From sequence record PZ445429.1: DNA of 64,000 nt; one strand, written 5' to 3'. The number at the start of each line of letters is the position of its first letter. The stretch's first letter is position 1. Source of the stretch: a phage. Below are positions 13,905 through 38,327 of this stretch, piece after piece. The notes under the pieces are model-generated. The model was not told where the DNA came from. It made no database searches and saw only the letters and a program-made list of their open reading frames with translations. The position numbers and the translations under genes are program-made.

Positions 13905-14222
13905 ATGATTTTTCATATTCTGATTGATGATGTGCGTAACCTTCATGGAATGGACATTATCATTCGAACCCCCGAAGCCGCTGTTGAGTTTCTGAATAAA
14001 ACCGATACCACCGGACATTTCATTTATATGGATAACGATCTGGCTGTAGATGGTATGGAAGGTTATCAAATTCTTCGATTACTCCTAGAATTTGGTCAGA
14101 GACCCAAGAAAGTGGTACTAGTAACCTCGAACCCAGTAGCTAAAGAGACCATGCGTAATGATCTCTTAGACGAAGGGTATCAAGAAAGCCCTAATCGTAT
14201 TGAGTACGATTGGCCGGAGTAA
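13905..14222 (+). CDS. hypothetical protein (105 aa)
   Basis: promoter 13847-13874, RBS GAGG. Confidence 0.5.
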   Translation: MIFHILIDDVRNLHGMDIIIRTPEAAVEFLNKTDTTGHFIYMDNDLAVDGMEGYQILRLLLEFGQRPKKVVLVTSNPVAKETMRNDLLDEGYQESPNRIEYDWPE

Positions 14223-14677
14223 ATAAAATGAAGGCAGCTTTGCTTTTAATAGCTGCCCTAACCTATAGCTTCAATAGTCATGCGACCTACGACTCAAAGC
14301 AGATTGATTGCATTGCAAAAAATATCTACTTCGAAGCACGAGGTGAGGGCACTAAAGGAATGATCGCAGTTGCACAGGTTACTAAAAACCGTGTTAACTC
14401 TGGTACTTTTCCTGATTCTTACTGTAAAGTAGTATATCAGTCTAACCAGTTCTCTTGGGTGGCCAAGAGACCAAAAGTTGATAAAACCGATGAGGCTTGG
14501 CAAGTTGCTAAGAATTTAGCTAGAGTGATATACTACGTTGATTTACCACAAGATCCAACACATGGAGCGTTATACTTCCATAGTGGTAAAGATAAACCGT
14601 ACTGGACAAAGAAGTTTAAGAAAACAACGAAGATTCAAGGCCATACGTTCTACAAGCCTGTGGTTAAGAAAACTTAA
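14210..14677 (+). CDS. secreted cell-wall hydrolase, SleB/Hydrolase_2-like (putative)
   Basis: signal peptide MKAALLLIAALTYSFNSHA; NIYFEARGEG...AVAQVTKNR...YCKVVYQSNQFSW pattern. Confidence 0.5.
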   Translation: MAGVNKMKAALLLIAALTYSFNSHATYDSKQIDCIAKNIYFEARGEGTKGMIAVAQVTKNRVNSGTFPDSYCKVVYQSNQFSWVAKRPKVDKTDEAWQVAKNLARVIYYVDLPQDPTHGALYFHSGKDKPYWTKKFKKTTKIQGHTFYKPVVKKT

Positions 14678-14686
14678 AAATTCGAT

Positions 14687-14714
14687 TGCTTAAAGCCTTA
14701 AATTTCTGTATAAT
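14687..14714 (+). promoter_or_regulatory. early promoter TTGCTT-N16-TATAAT
   Basis: family consensus. Confidence 0.6.
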
Positions 14715-15367: not shown

Positions 15368-15396
15368 TTGCTAAACGCCTCAAAATTCTGTATAAT
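15368..15396 (+). promoter_or_regulatory. early promoter TTGCTA-N17-TATAAT
   Basis: family consensus. Confidence 0.6.
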
Positions 15397-15402
15397 AGAT
15401 TC

Positions 15403-15885
15403 ATGAAAAGGAAAGAATACCCTACTAAAGAAATACTTGAAAAATATTTTGTAGCTGATCCTGATAATGGGATACTATATAGGAAAACAAAGAAAGGTTT
15501 GAAAGAGTGTTGTGCCAATAATAAGAAATCACATCCAGATGTGGGATTTCAGGGCGACACCTATCAACTGCATGTCTTATTATTTATTATGTACTATGGA
15601 TATAGGCCTGAAGAAGTAGATCATAAGGATACTAATCCTAGAAATAATAGGAAAAATAATCTAAGGGACGCCTCTAGATCGCAAAATAATGCGAATAGAA
15701 ACCAACAATGCAATAATACTTCTGGGTACAAAGGAGTAAGTTGGGAAGGCTCTTCCTGGAGATACCAAGTAAGACATGAAGGAAAAAATTACAGTAAAAG
15801 AGGGTTTAAAACTGCGGAAGAGGCTTTCGAGGCCTCTAAGATATTAAGAGAATCCTTACATAAAGAATTTACTAACTTTGGTTAG
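15403..15885 (+). CDS. HNH homing endonuclease
   Basis: YYGYRPEEVDHKDTNPRNNRKNNLR...GYKGVSW (HNH plus AP2-like DNA-binding motif); promoter 15368-15396. Confidence 0.7.
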   Translation: MKRKEYPTKEILEKYFVADPDNGILYRKTKKGLKECCANNKKSHPDVGFQGDTYQLHVLLFIMYYGYRPEEVDHKDTNPRNNRKNNLRDASRSQNNANRNQQCNNTSGYKGVSWEGSSWRYQVRHEGKNYSKRGFKTAEEAFEASKILRESLHKEFTNFG

Positions 15886-16513
15886 TAATAGTGGGGTGCC
15901 GAAACCACTTATGTAACAACACTGCCGTCCTAGTATAATAGGTATTATTAGGGCTTCACCGCCTGAAGATGTGGGTTCGAGTCCCACGGTCGGAAAGAGT
16001 TGGATAACTGGTGCTTCTAATGGCGAAGCAATCGCAGGCAGTTGCGCACTGCCAAAACCACGCGGTAGTTGGTTCCAGGCTAACCAACCACTCTTGAAAA
16101 GTATATACTATGGTTTTGCTTGTTCAAGAAGCTTCGCATCGAAAATCGGAGGTGCGATTTTATCCGACCGCGTGGAGGACGTCTCTCCGTTAAGTGACGA
16201 AAAGTGGGACGATTCAGGTAGAGCTGGATATGGAACACCTATACATATGCGGAGTGCGCACAAAGCATATTGCGGTGGTACTAAACGAAATTAGGAGTCA
16301 TGACCTGCACAAGTTTAGTATGTCATAACCGATGTACATTCAGTACAAAAACCACTGAAGCTAAGATAGATAGTCACCTTGACTTAAACTGGAAGATATT
16401 GTCTGACGGAAGGGCTGCAGAGCTTAATCTGAGGGGGCTGACCCTACCTACCGTCGGGTATCTTTAAGAGCTTTTATAAGAGTTCTTAAAAATACCTAAC
16501 AAAAGGAATCAAT
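15886..16513 (+). ncRNA. ~630-nt ORF-poor GC-richer segment with tRNA-like T-arm and hairpins (candidate structured RNA)
   Basis: GUGGG-UUCGAGU-CCCAC T-arm at ~15971-15988, hairpin GGCAGUUGCGCACUGCC, long-range complementarity GGUCGG(15990)/CCGACC(16166); only a low-quality 107-aa ORF. Confidence 0.25.
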
Positions 16514-17023
16514 ATGAATCTAGGAACAACTTGTATCTTTGATCATCAAGAAATGTGTTGCCCTCGTATTCTGCATATAGCACACTTCTCCGAACGATTG
16601 ACGCTTGATCAAGCTCGTGAGAAAATGAGTGAGATTACAGGATACAATCTTCGAGAAGGTGAATACTTTAGCGTAGCTTTGGATTATATCGACAATACTC
16701 GTCTTTATCACTTAGTTCAGCTTGGTGAAGAAACTGAGGAAGTAAAAATGGCGAAAGATACATTACGTCGTTATCGCCCTCAGATTCTAGAGCGTACACT
16801 TCGTGGAGAGCCTAGTGATTACTTCTATATGCGTTGCTATGACGCAGATGCTACTCAATATGTTAATCTAAATCGCTTCTATCATGATGTGAATGATTTT
16901 CTGGACAAGAAATATGATGAATTAATCATAGCATCCAAAGCACAACGTGCCGCTAGAAATGCTGAAAAGGCTGCTAAAGAAGCTGTAGAAAGCCAAACTA
17001 AATTGAACGAAATCATTAAGTAA
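16514..17023 (+). CDS. hypothetical protein (169 aa)
   Basis: ORF with RBS AAAGGAA. Confidence 0.5.
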   Translation: MNLGTTCIFDHQEMCCPRILHIAHFSERLTLDQAREKMSEITGYNLREGEYFSVALDYIDNTRLYHLVQLGEETEEVKMAKDTLRRYRPQILERTLRGEPSDYFYMRCYDADATQYVNLNRFYHDVNDFLDKKYDELIIASKAQRAARNAEKAAKEAVESQTKLNEIIK

Positions 17024-17031
17024 TCAACTTT

Positions 17032-17106
17032 CGGGGTGTAGTCTAAAGGAGAGGCAGGAGTCTTCTAAATTCCTTTATGCAGGTTCGAATCCTGTCACCT
17101 CGGCCA
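17032..17106 (+). tRNA. tRNA-Arg (anticodon UCU)
   Basis: cloverleaf by hand: acceptor CGGGGUG/CACCUCG, anticodon loop CUUCUAA, T-loop UUCGAAU, encoded CCA. Confidence 0.7.
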
Positions 17107-17139
17107 ATTTTATTAACTGTAATTAAACAAAGGAAATAT

Positions 17140-18084
17140 ATGTTTACTAAAAACACTAAAGAACTGACTTCTGAGCAAAAAGTAATTCGCACTATCAAAC
17201 GTTGGGGTGTTGGTGCTGTATTTGGTCTTGGCGCTATTATTCTGGCTCTCAATTCCTACACAGTTGTTCAGGATGGTACTGTTAAGACTCAAACCTTCCT
17301 GGGTAAAGTTAGCCCGAACCCTGTACTGCCCGGCTTCCATATTGTTAACCCATTTGCTTCTTTTGATACTTTTAGTACGAAAGATATTTCTATGAAACTG
17401 GATAAACTTCAGGTTCCTAGCCAGGATAAGTTTAAGTCTACTGTTGACATTACCGTTATGTTGCAGTTTGATGGTGCTAAAGCTCCTATGAACCGTGTTA
17501 ACGCAGGTACTCAGGATCAGGCTCTGAACAAGTACGTTGAAGAGAAGATGCTATCTACGATTCGTGAGTTTGGTAAGTCTGTACCAAAAGCACAAGATCT
17601 GTTCGACGCTAAGATTCAGGCTCAACTGCAAACTGCTATTCAGCAAGAAGTAGAAGAGTATGCGCGTCCTTATGGTTACACCGTTAAGCAAGTATTCCTT
17701 CAGGATATTACTCTGCCACCGGTAATCATGGAACAGGTACAGAACACCAAAGTTCGTGAAGAACAAGTTAACGCTGCAAAAGCTGAACTGGCTCGTGTTG
17801 AACAAGAAGCACAGCAGAAAGTTAAGCAAGCTGAGGCAGATCGTTCCGCTCGTGAAAACATGGCAGTAGCTAACGAACGTGACGCAGATGCTAAACTGTA
17901 CGCAGCTAAGAAAGAAGCTGAAGCTAACGCCGCTCTGCAACGTACCATTACTCCTGAAATGATTCGTTGGAAGCAGCTGGAAGTTGAAATGCTTCGTGCT
18001 GAAAAATACCAAGGTGGTGTACCGCAGACTGTTGTTGGTACTGGCTATGATGGTCAAATGATCATGGATATGCGTAACAAGTAA
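17140..18084 (+). CDS. SPFH/band-7 (prohibitin-like) membrane protein
   Basis: N-terminal TM helix then SPFH-like core and long Ala/Glu/Gln-rich coiled coil; start moved to ATG 17140 because track N-terminus overlaps a tRNA. Confidence 0.55.
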   Translation: MFTKNTKELTSEQKVIRTIKRWGVGAVFGLGAIILALNSYTVVQDGTVKTQTFLGKVSPNPVLPGFHIVNPFASFDTFSTKDISMKLDKLQVPSQDKFKSTVDITVMLQFDGAKAPMNRVNAGTQDQALNKYVEEKMLSTIREFGKSVPKAQDLFDAKIQAQLQTAIQQEVEEYARPYGYTVKQVFLQDITLPPVIMEQVQNTKVREEQVNAAKAELARVEQEAQQKVKQAEADRSARENMAVANERDADAKLYAAKKEAEANAALQRTITPEMIRWKQLEVEMLRAEKYQGGVPQTVVGTGYDGQMIMDMRNK

Positions 18085-18107: not shown

Positions 18108-18195
18108 AAGCCCGCGTTTCCTCCGAGAGCGCGGGCTTTTCTGTATTTAAGACAAAAGAAAAGCCCCTTACCTTTCGGCAGGGGCTTTGTTTTTG
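18108..18195. terminator. pair of hairpin terminators between convergent SPFH (+) and Q/M-rich (-) genes
   Basis: AAGCCCGCG...CGCGGGCTTTT and AAAAGCCCCTTACCTTTCGGCAGGGGCTTTGTTTTT. Confidence 0.6.
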
Positions 18196-18401: not shown

Positions 18402-18821
18402 TTAGGATTTCTCCCCATTTTGCGCTTTTGCAACTTGACTTTGACAGAAACTGTTAAACTTACCCATAAGTGATACAAGTTGCTTTCCATCCTCTGTTTT
18501 AGCGAAGTCTTCGAAAAGGGCTAGAACAGCCTGTCCTTCCGCAGATACCTGCGGTTGTTGGGTTTGTTGAGTCATCTGCTGCTGTGGTTGCATTTGCTGA
18601 GGCATCATCTGCTGAGGCATCATTTGTTGCATTTGCATTTGCGGCTGCATTTGCATCTGGTTGATGTTTCCCTGCGGGTTTTGCAGGGAATTTTGCATTT
18701 GCTGTGCTTCTGCCAATCTCTGTTGCAACTGTTGTAAGTAGGGGTTATCAAGCCCCGGAACGGGCTGCTGGGAGCCCATACTTTGATTAAATCCGTTGTT
18801 CACAAAACCATATTTACTCAT
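18402..18821 (-). CDS. Gln/Met-rich low-complexity protein (139 aa)
   Basis: minus-strand ORF with RBS GGAGGAG; QMQPQMQMQQMMPQQMMPQQ repeats. Confidence 0.5.
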   Translation of the reverse strand: MSKYGFVNNGFNQSMGSQQPVPGLDNPYLQQLQQRLAEAQQMQNSLQNPQGNINQMQMQPQMQMQQMMPQQMMPQQMQPQQQMTQQTQQPQVSAEGQAVLALFEDFAKTEDGKQLVSLMGKFNSFCQSQVAKAQNGEKS

Positions 18822-18843
18822 GATGGGCTCCTCCCCTTAATTA

Positions 18844-19839
18844 TTAAGCCGGCAGTTTAGCCTGCAGACCAGCCAGAGTCTGAGTGATAGCACCAAGACT
18901 TACAGCGATTTGGTTGATTACCTGACCGTTAGCACCACTACCCTGAGCGATAGCTTCACGCAGACGGCATTCGTTCAGTTCGTCCTGAATACGCGCAGTA
19001 GTTACACCAGCGATTGCAGACTGAAGTTCACAGCAGCATTCAGCGATCTGACGTTCCAGAGCGTTCTGGTTAGCACAAGCCTGAGCAGCTACAGCAGCGA
19101 ACTGGTTGTTAGTCTGGATAGACTGAGCAAACATGATCTGAGCGGTATCGAACTTGTCTTGAGCACGTGCGATCTGGTTAGCAGCGAAAGCTTGATCCAT
19201 CTGGCGAGAAAGATCGAACTGACCCTGAATAACGTTACGAGTTTCCTGACAGATCTGGTTGGACAGGTTAGCACCAGTACCGTAGATCGTAGTCAGAAGC
19301 TGTTGAGTACTAGCAGCTTGAGCAGCTCCTACACCATTTACTGCACTCAGAACAGCACCAGTACCCTGATTAGCTTCAGTACGAGTAGTGTTGATTGCAG
19401 CTAGAATACTTGCAGTATCCTGGTTAGAAAGGATCGCGTCCACAGCAGTTCCCTCAGCGGCAACACCAGCACCGCGGCCAAAACCACCGAAACCACCGAA
19501 TCCACCTGTTAATAGAGCACCGATTAAGATAGCTCCGAATAGACCCATACCTTCACCACCGAAAGCACCGTTAGCAACTGCTGGGTAACCACCCATTAGG
19601 CCAGGGAAGCCACTAGTGAATACGTTTACTGGTTCTTGCATTTTATGTTTTCCATGTTTATGACAATGTTCATCATCGTCATCTTCTTCATCATCTTCAT
19701 CGTGTTCACGATGTTCTTTTTCGTAGGCTTTGACCTTCTCCCACTTTTTCTTGTCTGATTCTTCGTGACGACGCAGTTCTGCTGCTACGCCAGCGACCGT
19801 ATCAGGACTCTTAGCTACTTCTTCTGTCATTTTTGACAC
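18844..19839 (-). CDS. His/acidic N-terminus plus glycine-zipper membrane segment protein (331 aa)
   Basis: minus-strand ORF with RBS GGAGGTG; HREHDEDDEEDDDDEHCHKHGKHK then GGFGGFGGFGRGAG then Ala/Gln-rich domain with CCC motif. Confidence 0.55.
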   Translation of the reverse strand: MSKMTEEVAKSPDTVAGVAAELRRHEESDKKKWEKVKAYEKEHREHDEDDEEDDDDEHCHKHGKHKMQEPVNVFTSGFPGLMGGYPAVANGAFGGEGMGLFGAILIGALLTGGFGGFGGFGRGAGVAAEGTAVDAILSNQDTASILAAINTTRTEANQGTGAVLSAVNGVGAAQAASTQQLLTTIYGTGANLSNQICQETRNVIQGQFDLSRQMDQAFAANQIARAQDKFDTAQIMFAQSIQTNNQFAAVAAQACANQNALERQIAECCCELQSAIAGVTTARIQDELNECRLREAIAQGSGANGQVINQIAVSLGAITQTLAGLQAKLPA

Positions 19840-20036: not shown

Positions 20037-20065
20037 TTGCTTGAATGCTAAATTCTCTATATAAT
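20037..20065 (+). promoter_or_regulatory. early promoter TTGCTT-N17-TATAAT (nadR-pnuC)
   Basis: family consensus. Confidence 0.6.
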
Positions 20066-20095
20066 ATATTTATAAATTTGAGAGAGGAATCAAAT

Positions 20096-21151
20096 ATGAT
20101 TAAGACTGGTCTAGTAATTGGTAAGTTCGCACCATTAACGCGTGGTCATATTAACCTAATAAACACAGCAGCAACTATGTGTGAACGAGTTATTGTTGTA
20201 GTTAGTCATGATAATCGTTGGCTGGATAAGCAGAACACACGTGATCAGGAAGTATTACAGTTAAAGAATCGACTTCGTTGGTTAGAACAAACTTACGCGG
20301 ATATTGAGCACATTTCGGTAGAGTACATTATTGAAGATGATATTCCTGAATATCCGAATGGTTGGCCGGAATATGCTAGAATCCTTAATGAAAATTACGG
20401 ACATTTGCCTGAGATCACCATTTTCTCTAGCGAACTAGACTATGATGCAGAATATAAGAAATATCTGCCGAAGTTTGGTCATTATATTGTAGATTCTGAT
20501 CGGACTCGTGTTCCAATCTCAGCTACAATGATTCGTAATGATCTTATGAAGTATTGGGAGTTTCTTCCTAGCGTAGTTCGTAAAGATTACGTGCGTAAGG
20601 TTGTAATCATTGGGACTGAAAGCTCGGGAAAGACTACTTTAACAAAATACCTTGCGAAGCTATACAACACTTCGTGGGTAGAAGAATATGGCCGAACGTA
20701 TTGTGAAGTTGATCTAGTTGGTAACGAAAATCTACTTACCAGTGAAGATTATAGTAAAATTGCGTTCAGACACAAAGAGCTAGAGTTTGAAGCAGAACGT
20801 ACTGCAAATAAGATCATGTTTGTGGATACAAATGCTTTTATTACTGAGTTCTACCACAGACTTTATGAACATCGTAAGAATCCTGTGGTTACAGCAATTG
20901 CAAAAGAAGAACATTACGATTTAGTAATTGTTCTAGCGCCTACTGTTAAGTGGGTAGATGATGGTTTACGTATTAACTCCGATCGTTCAATTACTTCTGA
21001 ACTGTTCGAGCAGATGAAGAAAGAATTTCCAAATCAGTTCCCTGAAGGGCGTACTGTTTACATCGACTCCCCGGACTACAAAGTTCGTATGGACGAAGCA
21101 GTAAACGCAGTAGACTGGCTGATTCATCACTTTAACGTTGGAGAGTTTTAA
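20096..21151 (+). CDS. nadR: NadR-like bifunctional NMN adenylyltransferase / ribosylnicotinamide kinase
   Basis: GKFAPLTRGH nucleotidyltransferase (H/T)xGH motif; second P-loop VIIGTESSGKTTL; promoter 20037-20065. Confidence 0.7.
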   Translation: MIKTGLVIGKFAPLTRGHINLINTAATMCERVIVVVSHDNRWLDKQNTRDQEVLQLKNRLRWLEQTYADIEHISVEYIIEDDIPEYPNGWPEYARILNENYGHLPEITIFSSELDYDAEYKKYLPKFGHYIVDSDRTRVPISATMIRNDLMKYWEFLPSVVRKDYVRKVVIIGTESSGKTTLTKYLAKLYNTSWVEEYGRTYCEVDLVGNENLLTSEDYSKIAFRHKELEFEAERTANKIMFVDTNAFITEFYHRLYEHRKNPVVTAIAKEEHYDLVIVLAPTVKWVDDGLRINSDRSITSELFEQMKKEFPNQFPEGRTVYIDSPDYKVRMDEAVNAVDWLIHHFNVGEF

Positions 21152-21152
21152 T

Positions 21153-21830
21153 ATGACTAACTATCTTGTAAATGACTTTAAAAACTGGAAACCTTTGGAA
21201 TATCTGTGGCTGTTTATAGCAGTCGCCTTTATTAGTTTAGCAAACTATAATGGTACAGCTCTAGATTGGGCTACTGCAATAACCAATGTGGTTTGTGTTA
21301 TTCTGGTTGCAAAAGGACGTGTTTCCAACTATATTTGGGGCTTAGTGGGTGTTCTTACATACGGTATTACAGCTTTAAACGCAGATCTTTATGGTAATGC
21401 TGCACTAAACCTGCTATACTACGTTCCTATGCAGTTTTATGGAATGTACTTATGGCATAAAAATAAGCCAAGTAATCTGCCAGATGTTCCAACTAAGGTT
21501 CTGAATAAAGCCCAAGCTCTGCTGACTCTAGGGATTCTAGCAGTAGCTACTTTAGGTTACGGCAGCTTCCTTGCTACTACCGCTGATCCATTCCCAATGC
21601 TTGACGCATTTACTGCGGTTGGTAGTGTGATTGCTATGTGGCTTATGGTCAAACAATATGCTGAACAATGGCTGATTTGGATTGTTATTAACATTGGTAC
21701 TGTGTACATTTGGCTTGTAACTGCTCAATCTACAGGTGCATCTTACGCAATCCTAGCAATGTGGCTAGTATTCTTAGGCAACTCTATTCTTGGAGCTTAT
21801 AAAGGATACTTTGTACGCGTTAACAAATAA
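21153..21830 (+). CDS. pnuC: PnuC-like nicotinamide riboside transporter
   Basis: multi-TM protein, translationally coupled to nadR, WGLVGVLTYGITAL / Trp-rich PnuC-like helices. Confidence 0.6.
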   Translation: MTNYLVNDFKNWKPLEYLWLFIAVAFISLANYNGTALDWATAITNVVCVILVAKGRVSNYIWGLVGVLTYGITALNADLYGNAALNLLYYVPMQFYGMYLWHKNKPSNLPDVPTKVLNKAQALLTLGILAVATLGYGSFLATTADPFPMLDAFTAVGSVIAMWLMVKQYAEQWLIWIVINIGTVYIWLVTAQSTGASYAILAMWLVFLGNSILGAYKGYFVRVNK

Positions 21831-30590: not shown

Positions 30591-30812
30591 ATGCACGTTT
30601 TTGAGTTTCGTGATAAAAGTAACAATAAACGAGTTATTGTTATTGGAGAAACATACCTAGCATACGAACAAACTGACGGCTCTGTTATCTTGAATGATGA
30701 GAAAGCAAATTTTAGCTTTTATCCAGAAGAACCTTATGAAGAGTTTCGTACTAAGTTTCTTTTACCAGACTGGCTAGCAGTAGCCGAGCAACTAGAATCC
30801 GAAGATGGCTGA
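30591..30812 (+). CDS. hypothetical protein (73 aa)
   Basis: RBS AAGGAAA. Confidence 0.45.
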   Translation: MHVFEFRDKSNNKRVIVIGETYLAYEQTDGSVILNDEKANFSFYPEEPYEEFRTKFLLPDWLAVAEQLESEDG

Positions 30813-30969
30813 TAACCTGAAACTAAAGGTTGACAAACAAAAGAAACGTGTAGAGATTGAGCTTGGTGACGAACGCCTAGCACTATCCTTCGAGTTTCTT
30901 CAGCAGTTGGCGATGACAGTAATGTCTGATAAGTCTCCTGTATTTGAAAAAGAAATCCCGTTGAAATGA
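30805..30969 (+). CDS. small ORF (54 aa), not in track
   Basis: ATG overlapping previous stop (ATGGCTGA); ends just before tRNA-Thr. Confidence 0.3.
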   Translation: MADNLKLKVDKQKKRVEIELGDERLALSFEFLQQLAMTVMSDKSPVFEKEIPLK

Positions 30970-30979
30970 CGGGTTTATT

Positions 30980-31054
30980 GCTCCTAAAGCATTGCTGGCG
31001 ATGCAGTTGCCTTGTAAGCATCTGAACTGGGTTCGACTCCTGGTGGGAGCACCA
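30980..31054 (+). tRNA. tRNA-Thr (anticodon UGU)
   Basis: D-stem GCAU/AUGC, anticodon loop CUUGUAA, T-loop UUCGACU, CCA. Confidence 0.6.
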
Positions 31055-31128
31055 AATTTAAAAATTCATTTGCCTTCTCTCTTATTTCTTGTTATAATAT
31101 TTATATAAATTAATGAGAGGGAAACCAA

Positions 31129-31422
31129 ATGAAACGTTATCTTTCTGTCGTATTCCAAACGGGTGGTCAACGCTATACTTACGAATTTCCTGAGTCTTGG
31201 AAAATTAAAGAAGGTGATCAAGTTGTTGTATTAACACCTCGTGAAGGCTTCAAAGTAGTAACGGTTAAACAAGTCTTTCCAAAAGATCACGAACCATCTA
31301 AGTCTATTCAGTACAAGATGATTCACGGTCTGGTACGAAAAGTACCTAGAACAGAAGTCGAAGTAGATAAAACTGGGGAAGCTAAATACCAGTATACTTC
31401 TTACTTGGATGAAATGATGTAA
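31129..31422 (+). CDS. hypothetical protein (97 aa)
   Basis: promoter ~31068-31096, RBS GAGAGGGAAA. Confidence 0.5.
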   Translation: MKRYLSVVFQTGGQRYTYEFPESWKIKEGDQVVVLTPREGFKVVTVKQVFPKDHEPSKSIQYKMIHGLVRKVPRTEVEVDKTGEAKYQYTSYLDEMM

Positions 31423-31423
31423 T

Positions 31424-31499
31424 GCTCTGATAGTTCAACAGGTTAGAACAGGCGACCGATAATCGTCAAATCTTGGTTCGATCCCAAGTCGGAGTACCA
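31424..31499 (+). tRNA. tRNA-Ile (anticodon GAU)
   Basis: D-stem GUUC/GAAC, anticodon stem GGCGA/UCGUC loop CCGAUAA, T-loop UUCGAUC, CCA. Confidence 0.55.
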
Positions 31500-31505
31500 A
31501 ATTAT

Positions 31506-31581
31506 AGTTAGTTGGCAGAGTGGTTATGCACCTCCTTCATACGGAGCGACTACAGTGGTTCAACTCCACTACTAACTACCA
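31506..31581 (+). tRNA. tRNA with CAU anticodon (third copy; Met/fMet/Ile-lysidine)
   Basis: acceptor AGUUAGU/ACUAACU, anticodon loop UUCAUAC, T-loop UUCAACU, CCA. Confidence 0.55.
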
Positions 31582-31764
31582 AAGATAAGATCAGGCCTTT
31601 GTGCCAGATCTCTGTGTTTATTAAACTGAATGGGACTATCAATCCACAAGCCGGACTACGAGCGATTATCGGGTATTCACTTAATAAACAGCCTGCCTCC
31701 CAGTTTTTATCTTGCTTCTGGGTTAACAAAAAGCTGAGCCAAATTCTAACATCAGGGAGATCTA

Positions 31765-32133
31765 ATGAAAGCATATCAAAGTCTTAAGTCTGGCGTAATT
31801 AACCTTGTTCATGATAACCAGATCATTCAGCTATATTCTAAAGATGGTGAACTTAAACAAAAGGTTCTAGTTGAAGATCTAGAGGATATCACACCTCATT
31901 TTGACCCTGAGGCCTTCCGCATTGTAGATGTAGAAGTGGTTCCTCAAGTCGAGGGTGGTCAGCACCTAAATGTCAATGTGTTAAGCCGTGATCAGCTTTT
32001 GGATGCACAGAAACATCCTGAAAAATATCCTCAGTTGACCATCCGTGTCTCTGGCTATGCTGTTCGATTTAACGCATTGACGCGTGAACAACAGAACGAC
32101 GTTATTAGTCGTACATTTACTCAGGCGATATAA
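31765..32133 (+). CDS. hypothetical protein (122 aa)
   Basis: RBS GGGAGA. Confidence 0.5.
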
Positions 32134-32214
32134 TGGGGTTTGGATACGATTTCTCCCAGCTACGCAAGGTAGTCGAGCAAACTCCATTTATCTCCCAAGT
32201 TTTAGGAGAAATGT

Positions 32215-32514
32215 GTGGATCGAGCATTAAGACGCCATCACCGGCAACGTGTGAAAAACAATCGCAAGAAGTATTGGACAGTCTTCCCACACGAAGAAAG
32301 TCCTAAGCGGTTAGGCATTATCACTACCACTCCTTGCATCTGTTCTTGTTGGATGTGTGGGAATCCTCGCAAATACTATAAGAATAGTAAAGCAGGCATG
32401 AAAATCTCGGAGATTAAAAAGATGGATGCAATGATTATGGGCATCACCTTTACAGGTGGTATCTCTGATGAATTCGACGGTTTTGTAAATCAGGATATTG
32501 TCGAAATTATCTAA
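32215..32514 (+). CDS. Cys-rich protein (99 aa)
   Basis: GTG start after RBS AGGAG; CICSCWMCG; terminator 32524-32556. An alternative 57-aa frame from ATG 32134 exists. Confidence 0.4.
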   Translation: MDRALRRHHRQRVKNNRKKYWTVFPHEESPKRLGIITTTPCICSCWMCGNPRKYYKNSKAGMKISEIKKMDAMIMGITFTGGISDEFDGFVNQDIVEII

Positions 32515-32523
32515 TTAATAATA

Positions 32524-32560
32524 AACCCCAGCTATTGAATAAGTAGTCTGGGGTTTTCTT
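32524..32560 (+). terminator. rho-independent terminator
   Basis: AACCCCAG...CTGGGGTTTTCTT. Confidence 0.6.
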
Positions 32561-32578
32561 GTATATAGGATTTTCGAA

Positions 32579-32764
32579 ATGAAAATTTTTAAAGTGAACT
32601 ATAGCGGCCTGTGGTTAGGTGGTACAGCTATTGTTGTTGCGGAAACTGCAGAAGAAGCAATCGAACTGGCTAGAAATCATAGAAGTTCTATAGAATTCGA
32701 GAATGTGACAGTAGAAGAACTCCCTAGCAGTGGGGTAGTATACAACGACAACGGAGATTACTAA
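32579..32764 (+). CDS. hypothetical protein (61 aa)
   Basis: short ORF. Confidence 0.4.
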   Translation: MKIFKVNYSGLWLGGTAIVVAETAEEAIELARNHRSSIEFENVTVEELPSSGVVYNDNGDY

Positions 32765-32822
32765 TGTTATATTTTGAAGTTCGTCCACATTAAGTTAATT
32801 TAAAAGACTTAATGGAGGTAAT

Positions 32823-33218
32823 ATGAGCCGTACATATCGTAAACAATCTGGTGATCGTCACTGGCGTGATGCACATCGTTCTACTTATAATTTTCATAGC
32901 ACTAATATCCGTATTCCGTATATCTACACGGATAGGGATGGTAAGCAGTGGAAATATTATCAAGTTCGATCCAATGAAGCATGGGCTAAAACTTGGGATG
33001 AAATTGAGAAGGAGATTCAGGAAAATATCATTCGTAACGAGAAGAAAGATGGGCACTGGTGGGATTCTATTAGTAGAAGTGTTAAGTGGCATTCTAACAA
33101 AATGGTTCGTCAGGGAAACCGTCGTGAACTTCACCGTGTGATGAAAGATCCAGAAAATTACGACTATAATCGTGATCATGACCTGCGTAAGCGTGGGTTA
33201 TGGTGGGTTTATGACTAA
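32823..33218 (+). CDS. basic Trp/His-rich protein (131 aa)
   Basis: RBS GGAGGTAATATG. Confidence 0.5.
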   Translation: MSRTYRKQSGDRHWRDAHRSTYNFHSTNIRIPYIYTDRDGKQWKYYQVRSNEAWAKTWDEIEKEIQENIIRNEKKDGHWWDSISRSVKWHSNKMVRQGNRRELHRVMKDPENYDYNRDHDLRKRGLWWVYD

Positions 33219-33294
33219 TTTCATAAATAATTCATTTGCTAAAACCCTCTCCTTTTGATATAATATTTATATAAATTGATGAGAGGGCTTTGAA

Positions 33295-33567
33295 ATGAAA
33301 GAAGCAGAAATTAATGAAATGGCTAGAATATTCATCGTTTCCTATATGCAAGGCAGTTGCAATAGTTTATTCGAGTCTGCTATAGTATTTCAGGAAATGT
33401 TAGCCGAGAAAGGCGTACATATGGAAGATACTGAAATTGAAGATCTTCTAATGGAAACTTGTAGTAGTGCTGAAGTCTTCCAGTGTGGTAACTGTAATTG
33501 GTGGTGTCCAGAGCATGATCGTTCTGAAGAAGGTTCCTACTGTTCCGATTGTGAAGGAGAAGAATAA
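33295..33567 (+). CDS. Cys-rich protein (90 aa)
   Basis: CGNCNWWC ... CSDC; promoter ~33235-33263. Confidence 0.5.
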   Translation: MKEAEINEMARIFIVSYMQGSCNSLFESAIVFQEMLAEKGVHMEDTEIEDLLMETCSSAEVFQCGNCNWWCPEHDRSEEGSYCSDCEGEE

Positions 33568-33866
33568 TGAATAAGTTTATTATTGCTCTAGTAATTTCAG
33601 CAGTTAGTTTCGGTTCTCTGGCATCTACCAAAGTTTCTATGAAAAATGGTAATGTTAAAGTTCAGCAGAATGGCATTACCACCGAATATGGTAAAGTACG
33701 TGATGTAAAAGAACGTAATGGCAAAGTAGAAATATATACTAATAAAAACTTCTCTACTCCGGCTGTTACTATTAGTAAACGTGGTGAAATCACTACTCAA
33801 CGTACTAATAGTTCTGATTCTTTTACTTGCCGTTATGACTGCGGCTTTGAAGGTGAAGATGAGTAA
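33567..33866 (+). CDS. secreted protein (99 aa)
   Basis: signal peptide MNKFIIALVISAVSFGSLA. Confidence 0.5.
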   Translation: MNKFIIALVISAVSFGSLASTKVSMKNGNVKVQQNGITTEYGKVRDVKERNGKVEIYTNKNFSTPAVTISKRGEITTQRTNSSDSFTCRYDCGFEGEDE

Positions 33867-34278
33867 TTTAGACCCTAGAATTAAACATGCAGTTGAAGAA
33901 ATCCAAGATCAAATCGATGAGGATTTCACTGTTTGGTCAAGATTTGGTAATGGTGAAGGTTGTCAGCTTTATAGCATGAAAATGGGTATCTCGATTGAAC
34001 TTAGTATCAATCCCGAGGGTAACGTAGAAGCCCAACCCATGTTCAGTGTTCCAGGCTTCTCTGGATTTGTTATGGGCATGAAACTATGTCTACCAAATAA
34101 ACATCTTTACCGTGTTATCTGTCAGCTAGAAACAATTAAACATTTCTTGCCAGAAGATAACATTAATGACTACTATCATGAAGTTGTAGCAGCTTACATG
34201 ATGAAAGAACGCAAACGTCGGAGAGCAGAACGTGAAAGAGCTAAATCTCAACAGTCTAGTACAGATTCCAGCAACTGA
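33859..34278 (+). CDS. hypothetical protein (139 aa)
   Basis: ATG 33859 overlapping previous stop. Confidence 0.45.
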   Translation: MSNLDPRIKHAVEEIQDQIDEDFTVWSRFGNGEGCQLYSMKMGISIELSINPEGNVEAQPMFSVPGFSGFVMGMKLCLPNKHLYRVICQLETIKHFLPEDNINDYYHEVVAAYMMKERKRRRAERERAKSQQSSTDSSN

Positions 34279-34528
34279 TGCTGTACTAGACTTCCTCAAG
34301 CAGGAACATATTAAGTTCTGGACTAACTATGCAGAACAGTACGAAGAAACTTCTAGTGCAATAACATTCGCGGATAAACGAATAGCTGAGTATACAGATC
34401 CTAGAGTTAAAAATGGTATGATTACCTTACCACTTTGGGATGTAATGGAAAAGTTTGGTAAAGATTTGTGCCCAGGTTGTATACCATTGTTTGTTACTAT
34501 TCTAATTGACGAAAAGGATCTTAAATGA
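34232..34528 (+). CDS. hypothetical protein (98 aa)
   Basis: GTG start; start uncertain. Confidence 0.35.
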   Translation: MKELNLNSLVQIPATDAVLDFLKQEHIKFWTNYAEQYEETSSAITFADKRIAEYTDPRVKNGMITLPLWDVMEKFGKDLCPGCIPLFVTILIDEKDLK

Positions 34529-34809
34529 TTATCTCTCCATTTGCTTTGTGGTTTGTTATTGGTGCAGTTGTCGCGATTTACAGTCTGATTGATGATCTGT
34601 ATATCTCTAAAAATAAAGATGTTATTCTTTATGTTATAAACAAATATCGTCCGCCAGAATTAGCAGAATTTGACGATGAAAAGATGTTCAAATTCATTAT
34701 GTCAGGTATGCTTATTATGGACACCTTATTCGGGCCAGTAGCTACTTATTTCTTCTTCCGTAAAACTCGTAAGATGAAAAAGTTCCGTGCTGAAATGCAG
34801 AGCAAGTAA
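34525..34809 (+). CDS. membrane protein (94 aa)
   Basis: two TM helices. Confidence 0.45.
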   Translation: MIISPFALWFVIGAVVAIYSLIDDLYISKNKDVILYVINKYRPPELAEFDDEKMFKFIMSGMLIMDTLFGPVATYFFFRKTRKMKKFRAEMQSK

Positions 34810-34925
34810 AGAACTCGCGTAGGACCGAGTTGCGTCACCTGCAACTGTTACGGATAAGGGAGTCGTGCCCCTTAGTGCGGTAAGTGGTGAGTTGGTCGCT
34901 GACCTCAACTTTAACTGGAGATATC

Positions 34926-35273
34926 ATGAGCTTTATTTTATTCATTGTAGCAGCATGGTTTATTATTGGTTTAGGCTATGCTATTGCAGTTATTCGTCAT
35001 CTGGATGAATATTCTGCTGAATGGTTTATTAAGTACCTACGTTTAGACGATCAAGAACACGAGTTCGACAGTGCTGAGGAAAGACAGGCTGTCCAGTCAA
35101 TGACTCCCAAAGAATGCTTGCTTTACATGCGTGTAATTGGTTTCTTTGGACTGTTGGTAGCGGGGCCGCTAGGTCTTACTATTGCTCCCTACAAAGAAGT
35201 TGTTGACGACATTAAACTATGGAGAACCGCTGGATCGCTACGTCGTGCTAGAGAATTAAGTAAACAAGAGTGA
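34926..35273 (+). CDS. membrane protein (115 aa)
   Basis: ATG 34926 after RBS GGAGATATC; TM helices. Confidence 0.45.
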   Translation: MSFILFIVAAWFIIGLGYAIAVIRHLDEYSAEWFIKYLRLDDQEHEFDSAEERQAVQSMTPKECLLYMRVIGFFGLLVAGPLGLTIAPYKEVVDDIKLWRTAGSLRRARELSKQE

Positions 35274-35307
35274 TGATAATCACCTCCTAGCAAGAATAAT
35301 AATGACA

Positions 35308-35343
35308 AAGCCCAGCCTGCAATTTTGCGACTGGGCTATTTTT
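35308..35343 (+). terminator. rho-independent terminator
   Basis: AGCCCAG...CTGGGCTATTTTTG. Confidence 0.6.
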
Positions 35344-35418
35344 GTAATAAAATTTCAGTTGCTCAGATGCCACAAGTATTGTATAATATGTTTATAGATT
35401 GAGGCAAAAGGATAATTT

Positions 35419-36117
35419 ATGAGAATCATTTCAAAGTTCAATGATGTATACGATTTGCAGAATAGTTTATTTGATCCAGATCGTGTCTGGGAGCGTAAAA
35501 CTGAAGAGCTGCTGGTAAAAGTAACTGACGATGTAGAAAAGAATATCGTTCATAATCGTCAGGTGTTTCGTGAGGGTTCCTTATCCTTCCGTGGTGATTT
35601 CGAATACTCAGTAAATCCGCTATTTATTGCAGGTGAAGTTTACTGGTTACATGAGCTGTCCTGCTGGCATCCGGCATTCAGTTTCAAAACGTTCAACATC
35701 GATGCTGTATTTGATAAAATGGAAGAAATGGGATTACATGCCCGTTCTTACTTACTAGATAAGAATCGTGGTGATGTTCGTGAAACCATGCGAGATATGT
35801 TGGTTGAAGCAAAACCTAAAGCAGAACGTATCTTATCTGAACTGCGCGTACCAATTGCGTATGTGAAAGGTATTAAGAAGAACGATAACGATGATGTTCG
35901 TAACTTCGTAATTCAGACAAACATTCGTTTCCACCAGTCAGATATTCCGTGGCAGGAAATTGAAAGTAACTTATACCGTTTACACCAAGTTCTCGAACAG
36001 TATATCTTCGGTGTATTAGGAACTGGTGAGCCTGATATGATTACCGTATCAGATAAAGACAGGTTAGCAGCACATGGATTTGATACAAAAACTTCTTTCA
36101 GGAATATGGCAAGGTAA
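35419..36117 (+). CDS. hypothetical protein (232 aa)
   Basis: promoter ~35355-35383, RBS AAAGGA. Confidence 0.55.
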   Translation: MRIISKFNDVYDLQNSLFDPDRVWERKTEELLVKVTDDVEKNIVHNRQVFREGSLSFRGDFEYSVNPLFIAGEVYWLHELSCWHPAFSFKTFNIDAVFDKMEEMGLHARSYLLDKNRGDVRETMRDMLVEAKPKAERILSELRVPIAYVKGIKKNDNDDVRNFVIQTNIRFHQSDIPWQEIESNLYRLHQVLEQYIFGVLGTGEPDMITVSDKDRLAAHGFDTKTSFRNMAR

Positions 36118-36523
36118 GTGGTATATCCTGGGAGCTGGTCTTGCGATAGGTATCGGATTCGGTGCTTATCATTTAGTAAATAAGGTTGAAACTTTAGCGG
36201 GAGATCTTGCAGTTGCGACTAAAAAGATCTCCACTCTAGAGACTTCTCTTAATAAAGTGAAAACTGAGAGTGAACTTCGTGAGACTCGAATGAATCAGTA
36301 TTTCACAATGAATAATGTTTCGCAAGCAGATCTAGACAAAAAGATTAAGCAGTTAGATAAAGCTCTTAGTCGTCAAGATGTTATCGCTGCAAAGCCTGGA
36401 TTGGTAACATTAATTGCTAAAAAGCAGAATAAAGAGTTCGAGGAAAGATTAGCATGTTTAACTGGAAACTTGGAGTACTGCTCGCAGCCGCAATCACAAT
36501 CACAGGCTGTGCAGAAGAAATAA
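36074..36523 (+). CDS. putative i-spanin-like protein (N-terminal TM + periplasmic coiled coil)
   Basis: 149 aa, TM helix ILGAGLAIGIGFGAYHLV then coiled coil; 3' end overlapped out of frame by a lipoprotein ORF. Confidence 0.4.
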   Translation: MDLIQKLLSGIWQGKWYILGAGLAIGIGFGAYHLVNKVETLAGDLAVATKKISTLETSLNKVKTESELRETRMNQYFTMNNVSQADLDKKIKQLDKALSRQDVIAAKPGLVTLIAKKQNKEFEERLACLTGNLEYCSQPQSQSQAVQKK

Positions 36524-36807
36524 AACCAGAGCCATCTCATGAGTTAAAGCAAGCTCATGTTGACTGGCCTAAAGGACTTCAGCCGTGTAGCTTTGATTTC
36601 AAATTCGAAAAGAAATTAGCTACAAATGGTGAAGATGGCGTAGTAGTTGTTGTACCTTACAAAGATTGGAATGCAAAAGCAAAATGCGAGGAAGCAGTTT
36701 ACTCTTACATTTCACGACTGACCGGTATGGTTTGCTTCTATCGTCAAGATTTACAAGAAAAACGTTGCTTAGTTTACTATCCACCCATTACAAATAGGAA
36801 AGATTAA
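36454..36807 (+). CDS. putative o-spanin-like lipoprotein
   Basis: 117 aa, signal peptide with lipobox ITGC, several Cys; starts inside previous gene in a different frame. Confidence 0.4.
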   Translation: MFNWKLGVLLAAAITITGCAEEIKPEPSHELKQAHVDWPKGLQPCSFDFKFEKKLATNGEDGVVVVVPYKDWNAKAKCEEAVYSYISRLTGMVCFYRQDLQEKRCLVYYPPITNRKD

Positions 36808-37559
36808 TGTCAGTATTAGTCGGTTTACATGGTGAGGCTGGTGCGGGAAAAGATACCGTTGCAGAATTAATGATTGACTGGTGTAATGACACGTTCCCAA
36901 CGTGTTTATCCCGTCGTTACAGTTTTGCTAAACCCGTTTACGAACTTGCATCCGTAATCCTCGGGGTAACTCCAGAGTTTCTGGGAGAGCGCAGGGGAAA
37001 AGAGATTGACCAATGGTTTACGGTCACACAATCTCAATTGGAGCGAGCTAGAGACGTATGGTTTAAGTATGGTATCGATAAGTTTGAGGACTTCTCGTAC
37101 GTTTGGCCGATTTTTGAAGGAAAATACCTTGATCCTCAGCAGTTAATTGGGCAAGCTGATGATGCGCTGTATAGCGTGTTTATCTCCCCAAGAAAAATGC
37201 TACAGCTTGTAGGTACTGAGTTAGGAAGGCAGCTGGTGCATGAACGCATTTGGCTCATAATTCTGGAGCAATCCATCGATAAAGACGACCCAGACGTCGC
37301 AATCGTTACCGATGTGCGTTTCCCCAATGAGGGAGAGCTAATCATGGAAACCAATACTCTAGATATGGATTCCATGCTTATTAAGGTTGAATCTGGTATT
37401 ACTAATAAGTATCGCATCGAGACAGATCATCCGTCTGAAAGCGGTATTCCTGAAAAATACATTTCTCATAAATTTGAGAATACCTTCAACGGACTTGATG
37501 CACTTCGTACCGATGTGTACCACTTCTGTGACTTAGAGCTAGAACCACTAGTTGGATAA
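36807..37559 (+). CDS. dnk: deoxynucleoside monophosphate kinase (putative)
   Basis: P-loop LVGLHGEAGAGKDTVAE at N-terminus, 250 aa. Confidence 0.55.
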   Translation: MSVLVGLHGEAGAGKDTVAELMIDWCNDTFPTCLSRRYSFAKPVYELASVILGVTPEFLGERRGKEIDQWFTVTQSQLERARDVWFKYGIDKFEDFSYVWPIFEGKYLDPQQLIGQADDALYSVFISPRKMLQLVGTELGRQLVHERIWLIILEQSIDKDDPDVAIVTDVRFPNEGELIMETNTLDMDSMLIKVESGITNKYRIETDHPSESGIPEKYISHKFENTFNGLDALRTDVYHFCDLELEPLVG

Positions 37560-37571
37560 TTAAGGATCACT

Positions 37572-38171
37572 ATGACTAATAAGAAAGAAGAAAAGACTAA
37601 CCTGTTTCACACTGTTCGCCAATCTAACGAATATACCTTTTTCTTTGATGAAGAATTAGGCTCACCGGATGAGTATCGTGACCTATCCATGATACTGATG
37701 CAGGCTGGTGAAGATGATGAAATTAATCTGATGATTAATGGGCCTGGTGGTTACGTTGATACTGCTGCACAACTATCTAACTTAATCGCTAACTGTCGTG
37801 GAACGGTTATTGGACACCTGCTCGGTCCTAGTGCTTCTGCTTACTGCACAATCTTCCTGTCTTGCCACGGTTGGGTTGTACATCCACATGCTACGCTTAT
37901 GGGGCATACGTTCTCTGGCGGATTCTGTGAGAAAGGTCAAGAAATCAAGAAAGCCTATGAATCTTACAACCAGTTTGTAGAAGATATGATGCTAGATGTT
38001 TACTTCCCGTTCTTCTCTATTGACGAGATCGAGGACATGGTAAAAGAGAATAAGAATATCTACCTCAACAGCAAAGAAATCAATAAGCGTATTGAAATTT
38101 TGGCGAATTATCGCAAAGAGCAATATAGTAAAGCTCAAGCTCCGCATCCAGAAGAACATGGAGAAGTGTAA
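37572..38171 (+). CDS. ClpP/S14-like peptidase family protein (putative)
   Basis: INGPGGYV (cf. ClpP INSPGG), 199 aa; terminator 38181-38204. Confidence 0.4.
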   Translation: MTNKKEEKTNLFHTVRQSNEYTFFFDEELGSPDEYRDLSMILMQAGEDDEINLMINGPGGYVDTAAQLSNLIANCRGTVIGHLLGPSASAYCTIFLSCHGWVVHPHATLMGHTFSGGFCEKGQEIKKAYESYNQFVEDMMLDVYFPFFSIDEIEDMVKENKNIYLNSKEINKRIEILANYRKEQYSKAQAPHPEEHGEV

Positions 38172-38180
38172 GTAGTTTTA

Positions 38181-38212
38181 AGCCAGAGTTTAACGACTCT
38201 GGCTTTTCTTTT
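38181..38212 (+). terminator. rho-independent terminator
   Basis: AGCCAGAG-TTTAACGAC-TCTGGCTTTTCTTTTG. Confidence 0.6.
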
Positions 38213-38327
38213 GCCTAAAATTCTTCTTGACAACGACAAAAAATTGTGCTCCAGAAGTGATCTTTAAAAACACATTGTAATTTTCCTCTAGAATTAGTAT
38301 AATGGTAATGGTTAGAGGAGGTTACAA

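Follow-up and report, generated by a model that had tools for sequence, protein, structure and literature searches.

Positions 17140-18084 (+ strand) of a 64,000-nucleotide stretch of phage DNA (sequence record PZ445429.1; the whole stretch is hereafter called the window) carry a gene of 314 codons plus stop that almost certainly encodes an SPFH/Band 7 membrane scaffold protein, and that is dispensable for lytic growth in the laboratory yet strongly maintained in nature. The window belongs to an epseptimavirus-type (T5-like) phage: 455 phage records, mostly of T5-likes of Salmonella and Escherichia, match the DNA around the gene. With moderate confidence, we explain the protein as an accessory, probably early, homo-oligomeric SPFH scaffold that would tune the host inner membrane. 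The gene is already known as an annotation, which records of T5 and its relatives have borne for twenty years; what is newly assembled here is a pattern, namely near-universality, purifying selection, transfer between phage families, and absence from the deletion strain T5st0.

The protein matches the Pfam family Band_7 (PF01145) over residues 50-224 with E = 2.9e-19 and 70.3 bits, compared with a gathering score of 23.6, and the alignment spans profile positions 12-176 of 176; the profile search that had been proposed as a check thus supports the SPFH/band-7 identity advanced in the original prediction. The only other Pfam matches at E ≤ 1 are Band_7_1, which is below its cut-off, and a chance match to CdiI_2, and the flotillin-specific C-terminal domain is absent from the matches at this level. 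Scans of the protein returned no NCBIfam family and no PADLOC-DB defense-protein family at E ≤ 0.1, the latter result leaving the suggested link to defense systems without support. An AlphaFold2 monomer model built on a 27-sequence family alignment (mean predicted local distance difference test score [pLDDT] of 77.6) consists of a helix (residues 11-37), a beta-rich and then alpha/beta domain (residues 40-191), two further helices (residues 194-269 and 272-289), and a low-confidence tail. When the model was compared with the PDB by Foldseek, 62 chains were found at E ≤ 0.001; each of the 50 best that were listed is either an SPFH-family protein or the related major vault protein, with alignments that cover 268-310 columns (most of them 270-310). 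The best matches are to erlin1/2 (3.8e-14), prohibitin (5.6e-13), and HflC/HflK (1.8e-11), followed by stomatin, QmcA (8.6e-10), and flotillin (5e-8). A comparison of the family profile with solved structures places QmcA first (1.6e-7) and PHB2 next (5e-5), then PHB1 and HflC (1.7e-3); the prohibitins are therefore second to QmcA by profile, whereas erlin and prohibitin come first by structure.

The order of elements along the chain is that of an SPFH scaffold. A single hydrophobic segment, GVGAVFGLGAIILALNSYTVV (approximately residues 23-43; 17206..17268, + strand), is seen in the hydropathy profile, where the best hydrophobic 19-mer covers residues 24-43 (Kyte-Doolittle value 1.77), and coincides with the AlphaFold2 helix at residues 11-37; the N-terminal transmembrane helix originally described is thus borne out, and the segment is predicted to act as an uncleaved signal-anchor. 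The SPFH alpha/beta domain (residues 50-224; 17287..17811, + strand), delimited by Pfam, AlphaFold2, and Foldseek, is made up in the model of strands at residues 40-110 and 180-191 and helices at residues 112-178, and it contains a VPSQDKxK motif (residues 92-99) that is invariant across the family alignment. Beyond it, AlphaFold2 and Foldseek place a long helical region (helices 194-269 and 272-289; 17719..18006, + strand) rich in Ala, Glu, Lys, and Gln, with ∼95 helical residues in total, 76 of which form the uninterrupted helix 194-269. Judging from the model, helices 194-289 would correspond to what in SPFH cages are the wall and roof helices (CC1/CC2). Conservation of the long helix is high, and the indels by which relatives differ within it in the family alignment are exactly 11 or 22 residues long, as would be expected if the helix register must hold in a packed helical wall. 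A crude scan of the helical region for hydrophobic periodicity gave no clean heptad or hendecad peak near 3.5-3.67. The long coiled coil of the original prediction therefore stands in part: wall and roof helices are supported, but a canonical coiled coil is unsupported beyond the helices that AlphaFold2 places. The C-terminal tail, YQGGVPQTVVGTGYDGQMIMDMRNK (18007..18081, + strand), has a pLDDT below 50 over residues 291-314 of the monomer model, yet it is conserved across the family, and by analogy with solved SPFH cages it is a candidate cap-forming strand.

As for topology, the N-terminal flank of 22-24 residues carries six Lys/Arg residues as against two Asp/Glu residues and is net positive in 27 of the 27 aligned family members, while the 15 residues that follow the helix are near neutral. 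By the positive-inside rule, this bias predicts that the N terminus stays inside and that the SPFH domain is periplasmic, and we consider it probable, on the strength of these charges, that the domain faces the periplasm. Such a type II topology, in which the domain faces the non-cytosolic side, is typical of HflK/C, prohibitin, and erlin, and QmcA and flotillin have the opposite, cytoplasm-facing topology.

Among systems of known structure, prohibitin PHB1/PHB2 and erlin1/2 (PDB: 8rrh, 9o9z, 9vvj) are the best structural matches to the phage protein (3.8e-14 to 2e-12) and the prohibitins its second-best sequence matches, but both are eukaryotic hetero-oligomers with 15-20% identity to it. E. 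coli QmcA, solved as QmcA-YbbJ (PDB: 8z5g), provides the best sequence match among solved structures, is similar in length, and forms homo-oligomers of a single SPFH protein. It differs in that QmcA is encoded with an NfeD partner, whereas the phage gene is flanked by a tRNA upstream and by terminators and convergent genes downstream, with no NfeD gene in these flanks (neither the upstream open reading frame [ORF] at 16514-17023 nor the downstream ORFs have a Pfam match), and in that the charge bias of the phage protein predicts the orientation opposite to that of QmcA.

Within phages, WVH10228.1, a "band 7 domain-containing protein" of SIY1lw (Epseptimavirus, a Salmonella phage), has 99.7% amino acid identity to the window protein, and T5 ORF075 (AAX12012.1), annotated as "putative transmembrane protein; IPR001107 band 7 protein," is 91% identical. 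Copies in T4-like phages were listed as "SPFH domain/Band 7 family" as early as 2006 (PMC1524935). A full-text literature search turned up no work on the function of an SPFH protein from any phage, and a 2026 paper on an N4-like phage states that the reason for an SPFH gene in a phage genome "remains unclear" (PMC13239085). To gauge how widespread the gene is, we counted phage records that match the protein at ≥80% identity and, separately and at the same threshold, those that match the T5 hallmark protein A1 (query encoded at window positions 56975-58639); with 436 records for the SPFH protein and 440 for A1, the gene is close to universal (about 99%) among close T5 relatives. By its pattern of substitution, it is also under strong purifying selection: the ratio of nonsynonymous to synonymous rates (dN/dS), calculated by the Nei-Gojobori method, is 0.076 relative to the T5 ortholog (dS 0.70) and 0.065 relative to the copy in phage KP27, a comparison in which dS is saturated.

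This conservation contrasts with the fate of the gene in the laboratory. In the T5st0 record, a "recombination site for st0 deletion mutant" is annotated with tRNA-Asp on one side and a truncated T5p079 on the other, and the T5st0 genome is 8,514 bp shorter than that of the wild type. The match of wild-type T5 DNA to st0 stops at locus position 2860 (AY587007 position 41800), 1.1 kb short of the start of the SPFH gene, and a tblastn search with the SPFH protein against the 24-44 kb region of T5st0 gave no match. T5st0 is in standard laboratory use and is propagated on E. coli F (10.1101/2022.09.22.509047). Since the gene lies within the deletion of a viable phage, it is dispensable in the laboratory and its role is accessory. 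Conservation in nature combined with absence in the laboratory is the signature of a gene that counts only in nature, for example where host defenses, envelope stress, or lysis timing come into play, and the contrast makes a test of function cheap, in what is a very active structural field with regard to SPFH cages. It also follows that much of the structural and physiological work on T5 has been done on phage that lacks the SPFH gene.

Outside the T5-likes, family members are found in enterobacterial T4-like phages (KP27, RB43, and leN; 73-77% identity), in Aeromonas T4-likes (∼62%), and in the Grimontviridae phage J3S (75%). The T4-like copies (RB43 ORF139c, 44RR ORF098c, and KP27_147; 62-77% identity) share the architecture and length of the window protein, but in these Straboviridae they are located in the tk-rI region by the antiholin gene, whereas the window copy is located in a tRNA cluster. 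When bacterial species were scanned with one genome each, full-length chromosomal relatives were found in Morganella and Providencia (55-58% identity) and further relatives at 32-41% identity in methylotrophs and in other, mostly gammaproteobacterial, metagenome-assembled genomes. Among the names that source databases give to relatives are "prohibitin family protein" and "PHB domain-containing protein." The Morganella and Providencia proteins are likewise encoded by single genes, in an ordinary chromosomal setting unlike that of the phage copies; in Morganella, the neighbors are genes for an amino-acid permease, a TetR protein, a zinc-type dehydrogenase, and an HlyD plus C39-ABC exporter, and there is no prophage. 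A neighbor-joining tree unites the copies of T5-like, T4-like, and Grimontviridae phages in one clade (94% bootstrap), in which the T5-like copies group with those of enterobacterial T4-likes and the Aeromonas T4-like copy falls outside (80%); the sister group of this clade is formed by the Morganellaceae genes. Since bootstrap values at the deepest nodes are unusable (2%), apparently because the tree is rooted on a mis-called 960-residue Myxococcota ORF, we rely on its well-supported inner clades only. The gene tree thus follows host range and not phage taxonomy, which argues for exchange between unrelated virulent phages. Two seemingly cellular or plasmid-borne copies, in Flagellimonas marina (NZ_JBHSCL010000010.1, 178 kb) and in a Klebsiella pneumoniae "plasmid" (174 kb), were rejected as such; because these contigs are as large as a T4-like genome and carry an SPFH gene of the T4-like-phage type (73-76% identity), they are probably phage genomes that were mislabeled in, or contaminate, bacterial assemblies.

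The genomic neighborhoods of these relatives offer few clues to a partner. Among 58 bacterial loci, no partner gene is conserved across lineages, and the lineage-specific neighbors are housekeeping genes, with accD-folC upstream and Ndh2-like or flavin adenine dinucleotide (FAD) oxidoreductase genes downstream: the order in Methylophagaceae is accD-folC-SPFH-FAD oxidoreductase, and in Methylococcaceae an Ndh2-like flavoprotein gene lies 3' of the SPFH relative. ATP-binding cassette (ABC) transporter genes, the only widely shared neighbors (20 loci, on mixed strands and at mixed distances), were judged to reflect generic ATPase similarity and set aside. In the methylotrophs, the gene immediately after the SPFH relative codes for a membrane-associated, respiratory-type flavoprotein, which is Pyr_redox_2 (Ndh2-like) in one lineage and Mqo/DAO-like in the other (loci L019, 6815-8149, and L028, 6917-8245), a possible hint that cellular members of the family are linked to respiration. 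In phages, the SPFH gene of KP27 and leN lies directly 3' of a pair formed by the rI antiholin (PF24205) and DUF5856 genes, a "lysis inhibition" gene is 2.7 kb away in phiAS4, an endolysin gene is ∼1 kb away in J3S, and a Hydrolase_2 (SleB-like) gene is 2.5 kb upstream in the window phage; no lysis gene was found near the SPFH gene in Vibrio phages K412 and S4-7. We treat the lysis-gene neighborhood as no more than a lead.

In the mechanism that we propose, the N-terminal tail would stay in the cytoplasm with the SPFH domain in the periplasm, and copies of the protein would assemble with one another into a homo-oligomeric ring or dome, enclosing an area of the host inner membrane. All solved SPFH proteins form rings or domes (PMC12624060), which makes a homo-oligomeric dome the most probable assembly. 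By this analogy, assembly of the phage protein into a ring or dome seems likely, with the conserved wall helix, its 11- or 22-residue indels, and the conserved C-terminal tail as indirect signs of it, and a homo-oligomer is proposed because no second SPFH gene is present: the family profile finds only this one gene among the 396 ORF translations of the window. The dome would then alter which membrane proteins reach a client that it encloses or excludes. The leading candidate client, by analogy with the type II relatives, is the host protease FtsH, an assignment that we regard as doubtful, and phage lysis-control proteins are the second candidates. The outcome would be a tuning of membrane proteostasis or integrity during infection that matters in nature and not on laboratory hosts. 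Of the original prediction, then, the observation is confirmed and the part of the interpretation that concerns identity is supported, while the functional part, manipulation of host membrane proteostasis, is an analogy with HflK/C-FtsH.

Several considerations weigh against this explanation. Oligomerization, topology, and client are all inferred; the protein has ∼15-20% identity to solved SPFH proteins and is not an HflK/HflC ortholog, so FtsH binding is not transferable by homology; and QmcA, its best sequence match, has the opposite, cytoplasm-facing topology. The loss of the gene in T5st0 comes with no reported defect, such that any effect must be subtle or conditional, and no partner gene is conserved among the bacterial relatives from which a client might be deduced. 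Finally, the proximity to lysis genes is seen in ∼4 independent lineages, in hyperplastic regions, and is not clearly beyond chance.

Other explanations bear on either the nature of the protein or the use to which it is put. By far the least probable is that it is a lipoprotein, the label attached to PHROG 200, which the protein matches with E = 8e-85, and copied into many GenBank records. Lipidation requires a lipobox cysteine, and the protein has no cysteine at all, and the first 60 residues are free of cysteine in 25 of the 27 aligned relatives; the label cannot apply to the SPFH protein and was rejected. The label "lipoprotein" (even "lipopritein") has spread over many phage records of the family, an annotation error worth correcting. 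A cytoplasm-facing (N-out) microdomain scaffold in the manner of QmcA, YqiK, and flotillin, which would organize a site for replication or assembly at the inner membrane face, would suit the sequence match to QmcA, and the periplasmic orientation is derived from charge bias only; however, the 22-residue tail with its net charge of +4 would then have to cross the membrane against the positive-inside rule, the same bias is present in 27/27 relatives, and neither an NfeD partner nor, among the Pfam matches, a flotillin domain accompanies the protein, and we consider this arrangement improbable. A periplasm-facing protein could instead mimic HflK/C, replacing or joining the host HflK/C cage at FtsH and blocking or redirecting proteolysis, for example to stabilize phage membrane proteins. 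Like the phage protein, HflK/HflC in complex with FtsH (PDB: 7vhp, 7wi3, 9cz2) have an N-terminal anchor, an SPFH domain (predicted to be periplasmic in the phage protein), a wall helix, and a C-terminal tail, the predicted type II topology is the same, and Foldseek matches the phage protein over its full length to HflK and HflC (1.8e-11 and weaker). Phages are known to target host proteases, as lambda CIII does FtsH and T4 PinA does Lon. HflK/C, prohibitin, and erlin all act with membrane-protein degradation machinery (PMC12048511, PMC12624060). HflK/C is, however, a two-gene heteromer, whereas the phage protein is the product of a single gene with no K/C pair and has a marginal sequence relation to it: there is no NCBIfam HflK or HflC match, the profile search for HflK/HflC orthology found HflC only at E = 1.7e-3 and did not find HflK at E ≤ 0.01, identity in structure-based alignments is ∼18%, and the nearest cellular relatives are stand-alone genes of Morganellaceae and methylotrophs, not hflKC. 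Mimicry of HflK/C is thus a possibility to which we give limited credence.

Two further explanations concern what the protein would be for. As a lysis-timing or envelope-integrity factor, its dome would sequester holin or antiholin, or otherwise stabilize the energized inner membrane, and thereby delay premature lysis. The gene comes directly after the module of the rI antiholin in two genera of T4-likes and is less than 3 kb from it in a third, near the endolysin gene in the Grimontviridae phage, and near a SleB-like wall hydrolase gene in T5-likes; RI and the periplasmic domain of holin act in the periplasm, where the SPFH domain would be; and dispensability is typical of lysis-timing genes. 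The adjacency is nevertheless loose and varies between lineages, accessory genes are known to accumulate in the tk-rI region of T4-likes, no lysis gene lies nearby in Vibrio phages K412 and S4-7, and T5-likes have no rI, which together make a lysis-timing role rather unlikely in our judgment. About equally unlikely, to our minds, is a role in counter-defense or exclusion, in which the protein would shield the membrane from pore-forming abortive-infection effectors or block the entry of superinfecting DNA. A gene that is accessory in the laboratory but near-universal and strongly constrained in nature, that is exchanged between unrelated virulent phage families sharing hosts, and that is apparently expressed early would fit such a role, but no similarity to PADLOC entries and no known anti-defense family was found. 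A study of the PARIS system ascribes its phenotype to tRNAs (PMC11464382), and the T5Mos deletion (30661-38625) appears not to reach the SPFH gene, so this study is uninformative on the gene. A bolder variant of our preferred explanation, the accessory homo-oligomeric scaffold, joins these strands: the protein would be a mobile, periplasmic, prohibitin-type cage that captures FtsH or holin/antiholin and acts as a conditionally essential counter-defense or lysis-timing device, a combination that we put forward as speculative. Equally speculative is its extension across the large virulent phages of Gammaproteobacteria, that is, T5-like, T4-like, Grimontviridae, and, by report, N4-like phages. 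If true, the cage proposal would mean that a viral SPFH protein has a function assigned for the first time, and it would offer a tractable homo-oligomeric model of how SPFH cages capture clients.

The mechanically derived ORF at this place is 17077..18084 (+ strand), but its first 30 nucleotides overlap, and its first ATG falls within, the gene for tRNA-Arg(UCU) (17032..17106, + strand; ARAGORN), which ends 33 nucleotides before the SPFH start codon. The ATG at 17140 is preceded at a distance of five nucleotides by a Shine-Dalgarno-like AAGGA (17130..17134, + strand) and is the position at which the T5 and SIY1lw orthologs begin (MF(N)TKN...). For these reasons, we assign the coding sequence to 17140..18084 (+ strand), as the ORF, Pfam, PHROG 200, and the orthologs indicate, and the coordinates given originally were right. 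The arrangement of tRNA-Arg followed by the SPFH gene is likewise annotated in T5 and SIY1lw, where the gene occupies the same place, after tRNA-Arg and before two hairpins and convergent genes, and the gene itself shows no substantial difference between the window phage and T5 ORF075 or the other Markadamsvirinae orthologs. The tRNA-Arg and SPFH genes are probably co-transcribed, in which case the 5' end of the SPFH mRNA may come from tRNA processing.

Downstream of the stop codon, two hairpins are predicted by folding and annotated in the T5 record as putative rho-independent terminators, in agreement with the double terminator noted in the original prediction. The first (18108..18138, + strand) has a 12-bp stem followed by TTTTCTGTATTT; the folded segment 18085-18150 has a free energy of -20.7 kcal/mol (z = -3.3 relative to shuffled sequences), and UUUUCUGUAUUU follows the stem. 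The second (∼18153..18195) has T-runs on both strands, folds with -20.5 kcal/mol on the + strand and -22.2 kcal/mol on the - strand (z = -3.65), and is kept in the alignment; it probably ends both the SPFH transcript and that of the convergent minus-strand genes at 18402-19839. The first hairpin also holds the sequence GAGAGCGC(G)GG at 18126-18136, conserved with T5, in which the homologous GAGAGCGC site, within the first terminator, is annotated as "major single-stranded nick 3, 32.6%." From this homology, the window phage probably has a genomic nick site at 18126-18136, within the terminator stem.

Upstream, a consensus scan and the sequence itself point to a promoter-like element at 15368..15396 (+ strand), with an A-rich upstream stretch, the form TTGCTA-17-TATAAT, and the sequence ...TTCTGTATAATAGATTCAT; this is the nearest promoter-like site upstream and the candidate start of the transcript that carries the SPFH gene. 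A second promoter-like site on the + strand lies at ∼14686-14714, and the common form is an A-rich upstream stretch, TTGCTT or TTGCTA, a 17-nucleotide spacer, and TATAAT. We take both sites to resemble T5 early promoters such as PN25, and the equivalent positions in T5 records bear early-promoter annotations. It should be noted that in a sigma-70 scan the segment 15800-20200 was no richer in sites than shuffled sequences and the segment 12500-17200 only modestly richer; with consensus sites near the shuffled expectation, the promoter assignment is based on the T5 annotation and on likeness to the early promoters of T5. The + strand is free of predicted terminators from these promoter-like sites as far as 18108, and the likely transcription unit consists of promoter, HNH endonuclease gene, tRNA-like element, orphan ORF, tRNA-Arg, SPFH gene, and terminators. 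That the SPFH gene is expressed early, as originally proposed, is a reasonable inference that fits the sequence and the T5 annotation of early promoters in the orthologous region.

Two genes upstream of the SPFH gene are extra in comparison with T5 and SIY1lw. That at 15403-15885 encodes an HNH_3 endonuclease (Pfam E = 1.2e-11), probably a homing endonuclease, and that at 16514-17023 is an orphan ORF of 169 residues that matches neither a Pfam nor a PHROG family. At 15923-15996, ARAGORN calls a "tRNA-SeC" whose anticodon, UCA, would decode the opal stop codon; in the corresponding region of T5, upstream of tRNA-Arg, a pseudo-tRNA is annotated. Farther upstream, 2.5-3 kb from the SPFH gene, adjoining genes encode a SleB-type cell-wall hydrolase (14228-14677; Hydrolase_2, E = 4e-26), which is a second wall hydrolase beside the main phage endolysin, and a cyclic-phosphate-processing receiver-domain protein (13905-14222; cREC_REC, E = 7.5e-15). 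On the other side, the convergent genes at 18402-18821 and 18844-19839 (both - strand) belong to PHROG 7894 and 8119 and have no Pfam match. One of the two products is extremely rich in Gln, Met, and Pro; the other has an acidic, His-rich N terminus, a Gly-rich hydrophobic stretch, and a C-terminal half rich in Gln and Ala. The window differs from T5 at this point, and T5 carries other genes in the place of the convergent pair. Just past these genes, at 20045-21830, lie genes for a NadR-like protein (cytidylyltransferase plus AAA_28) and a PnuC-like nicotinamide mononucleotide transporter, which together constitute a phage module for the salvage of nicotinamide adenine dinucleotide and are so annotated in SIY1lw.

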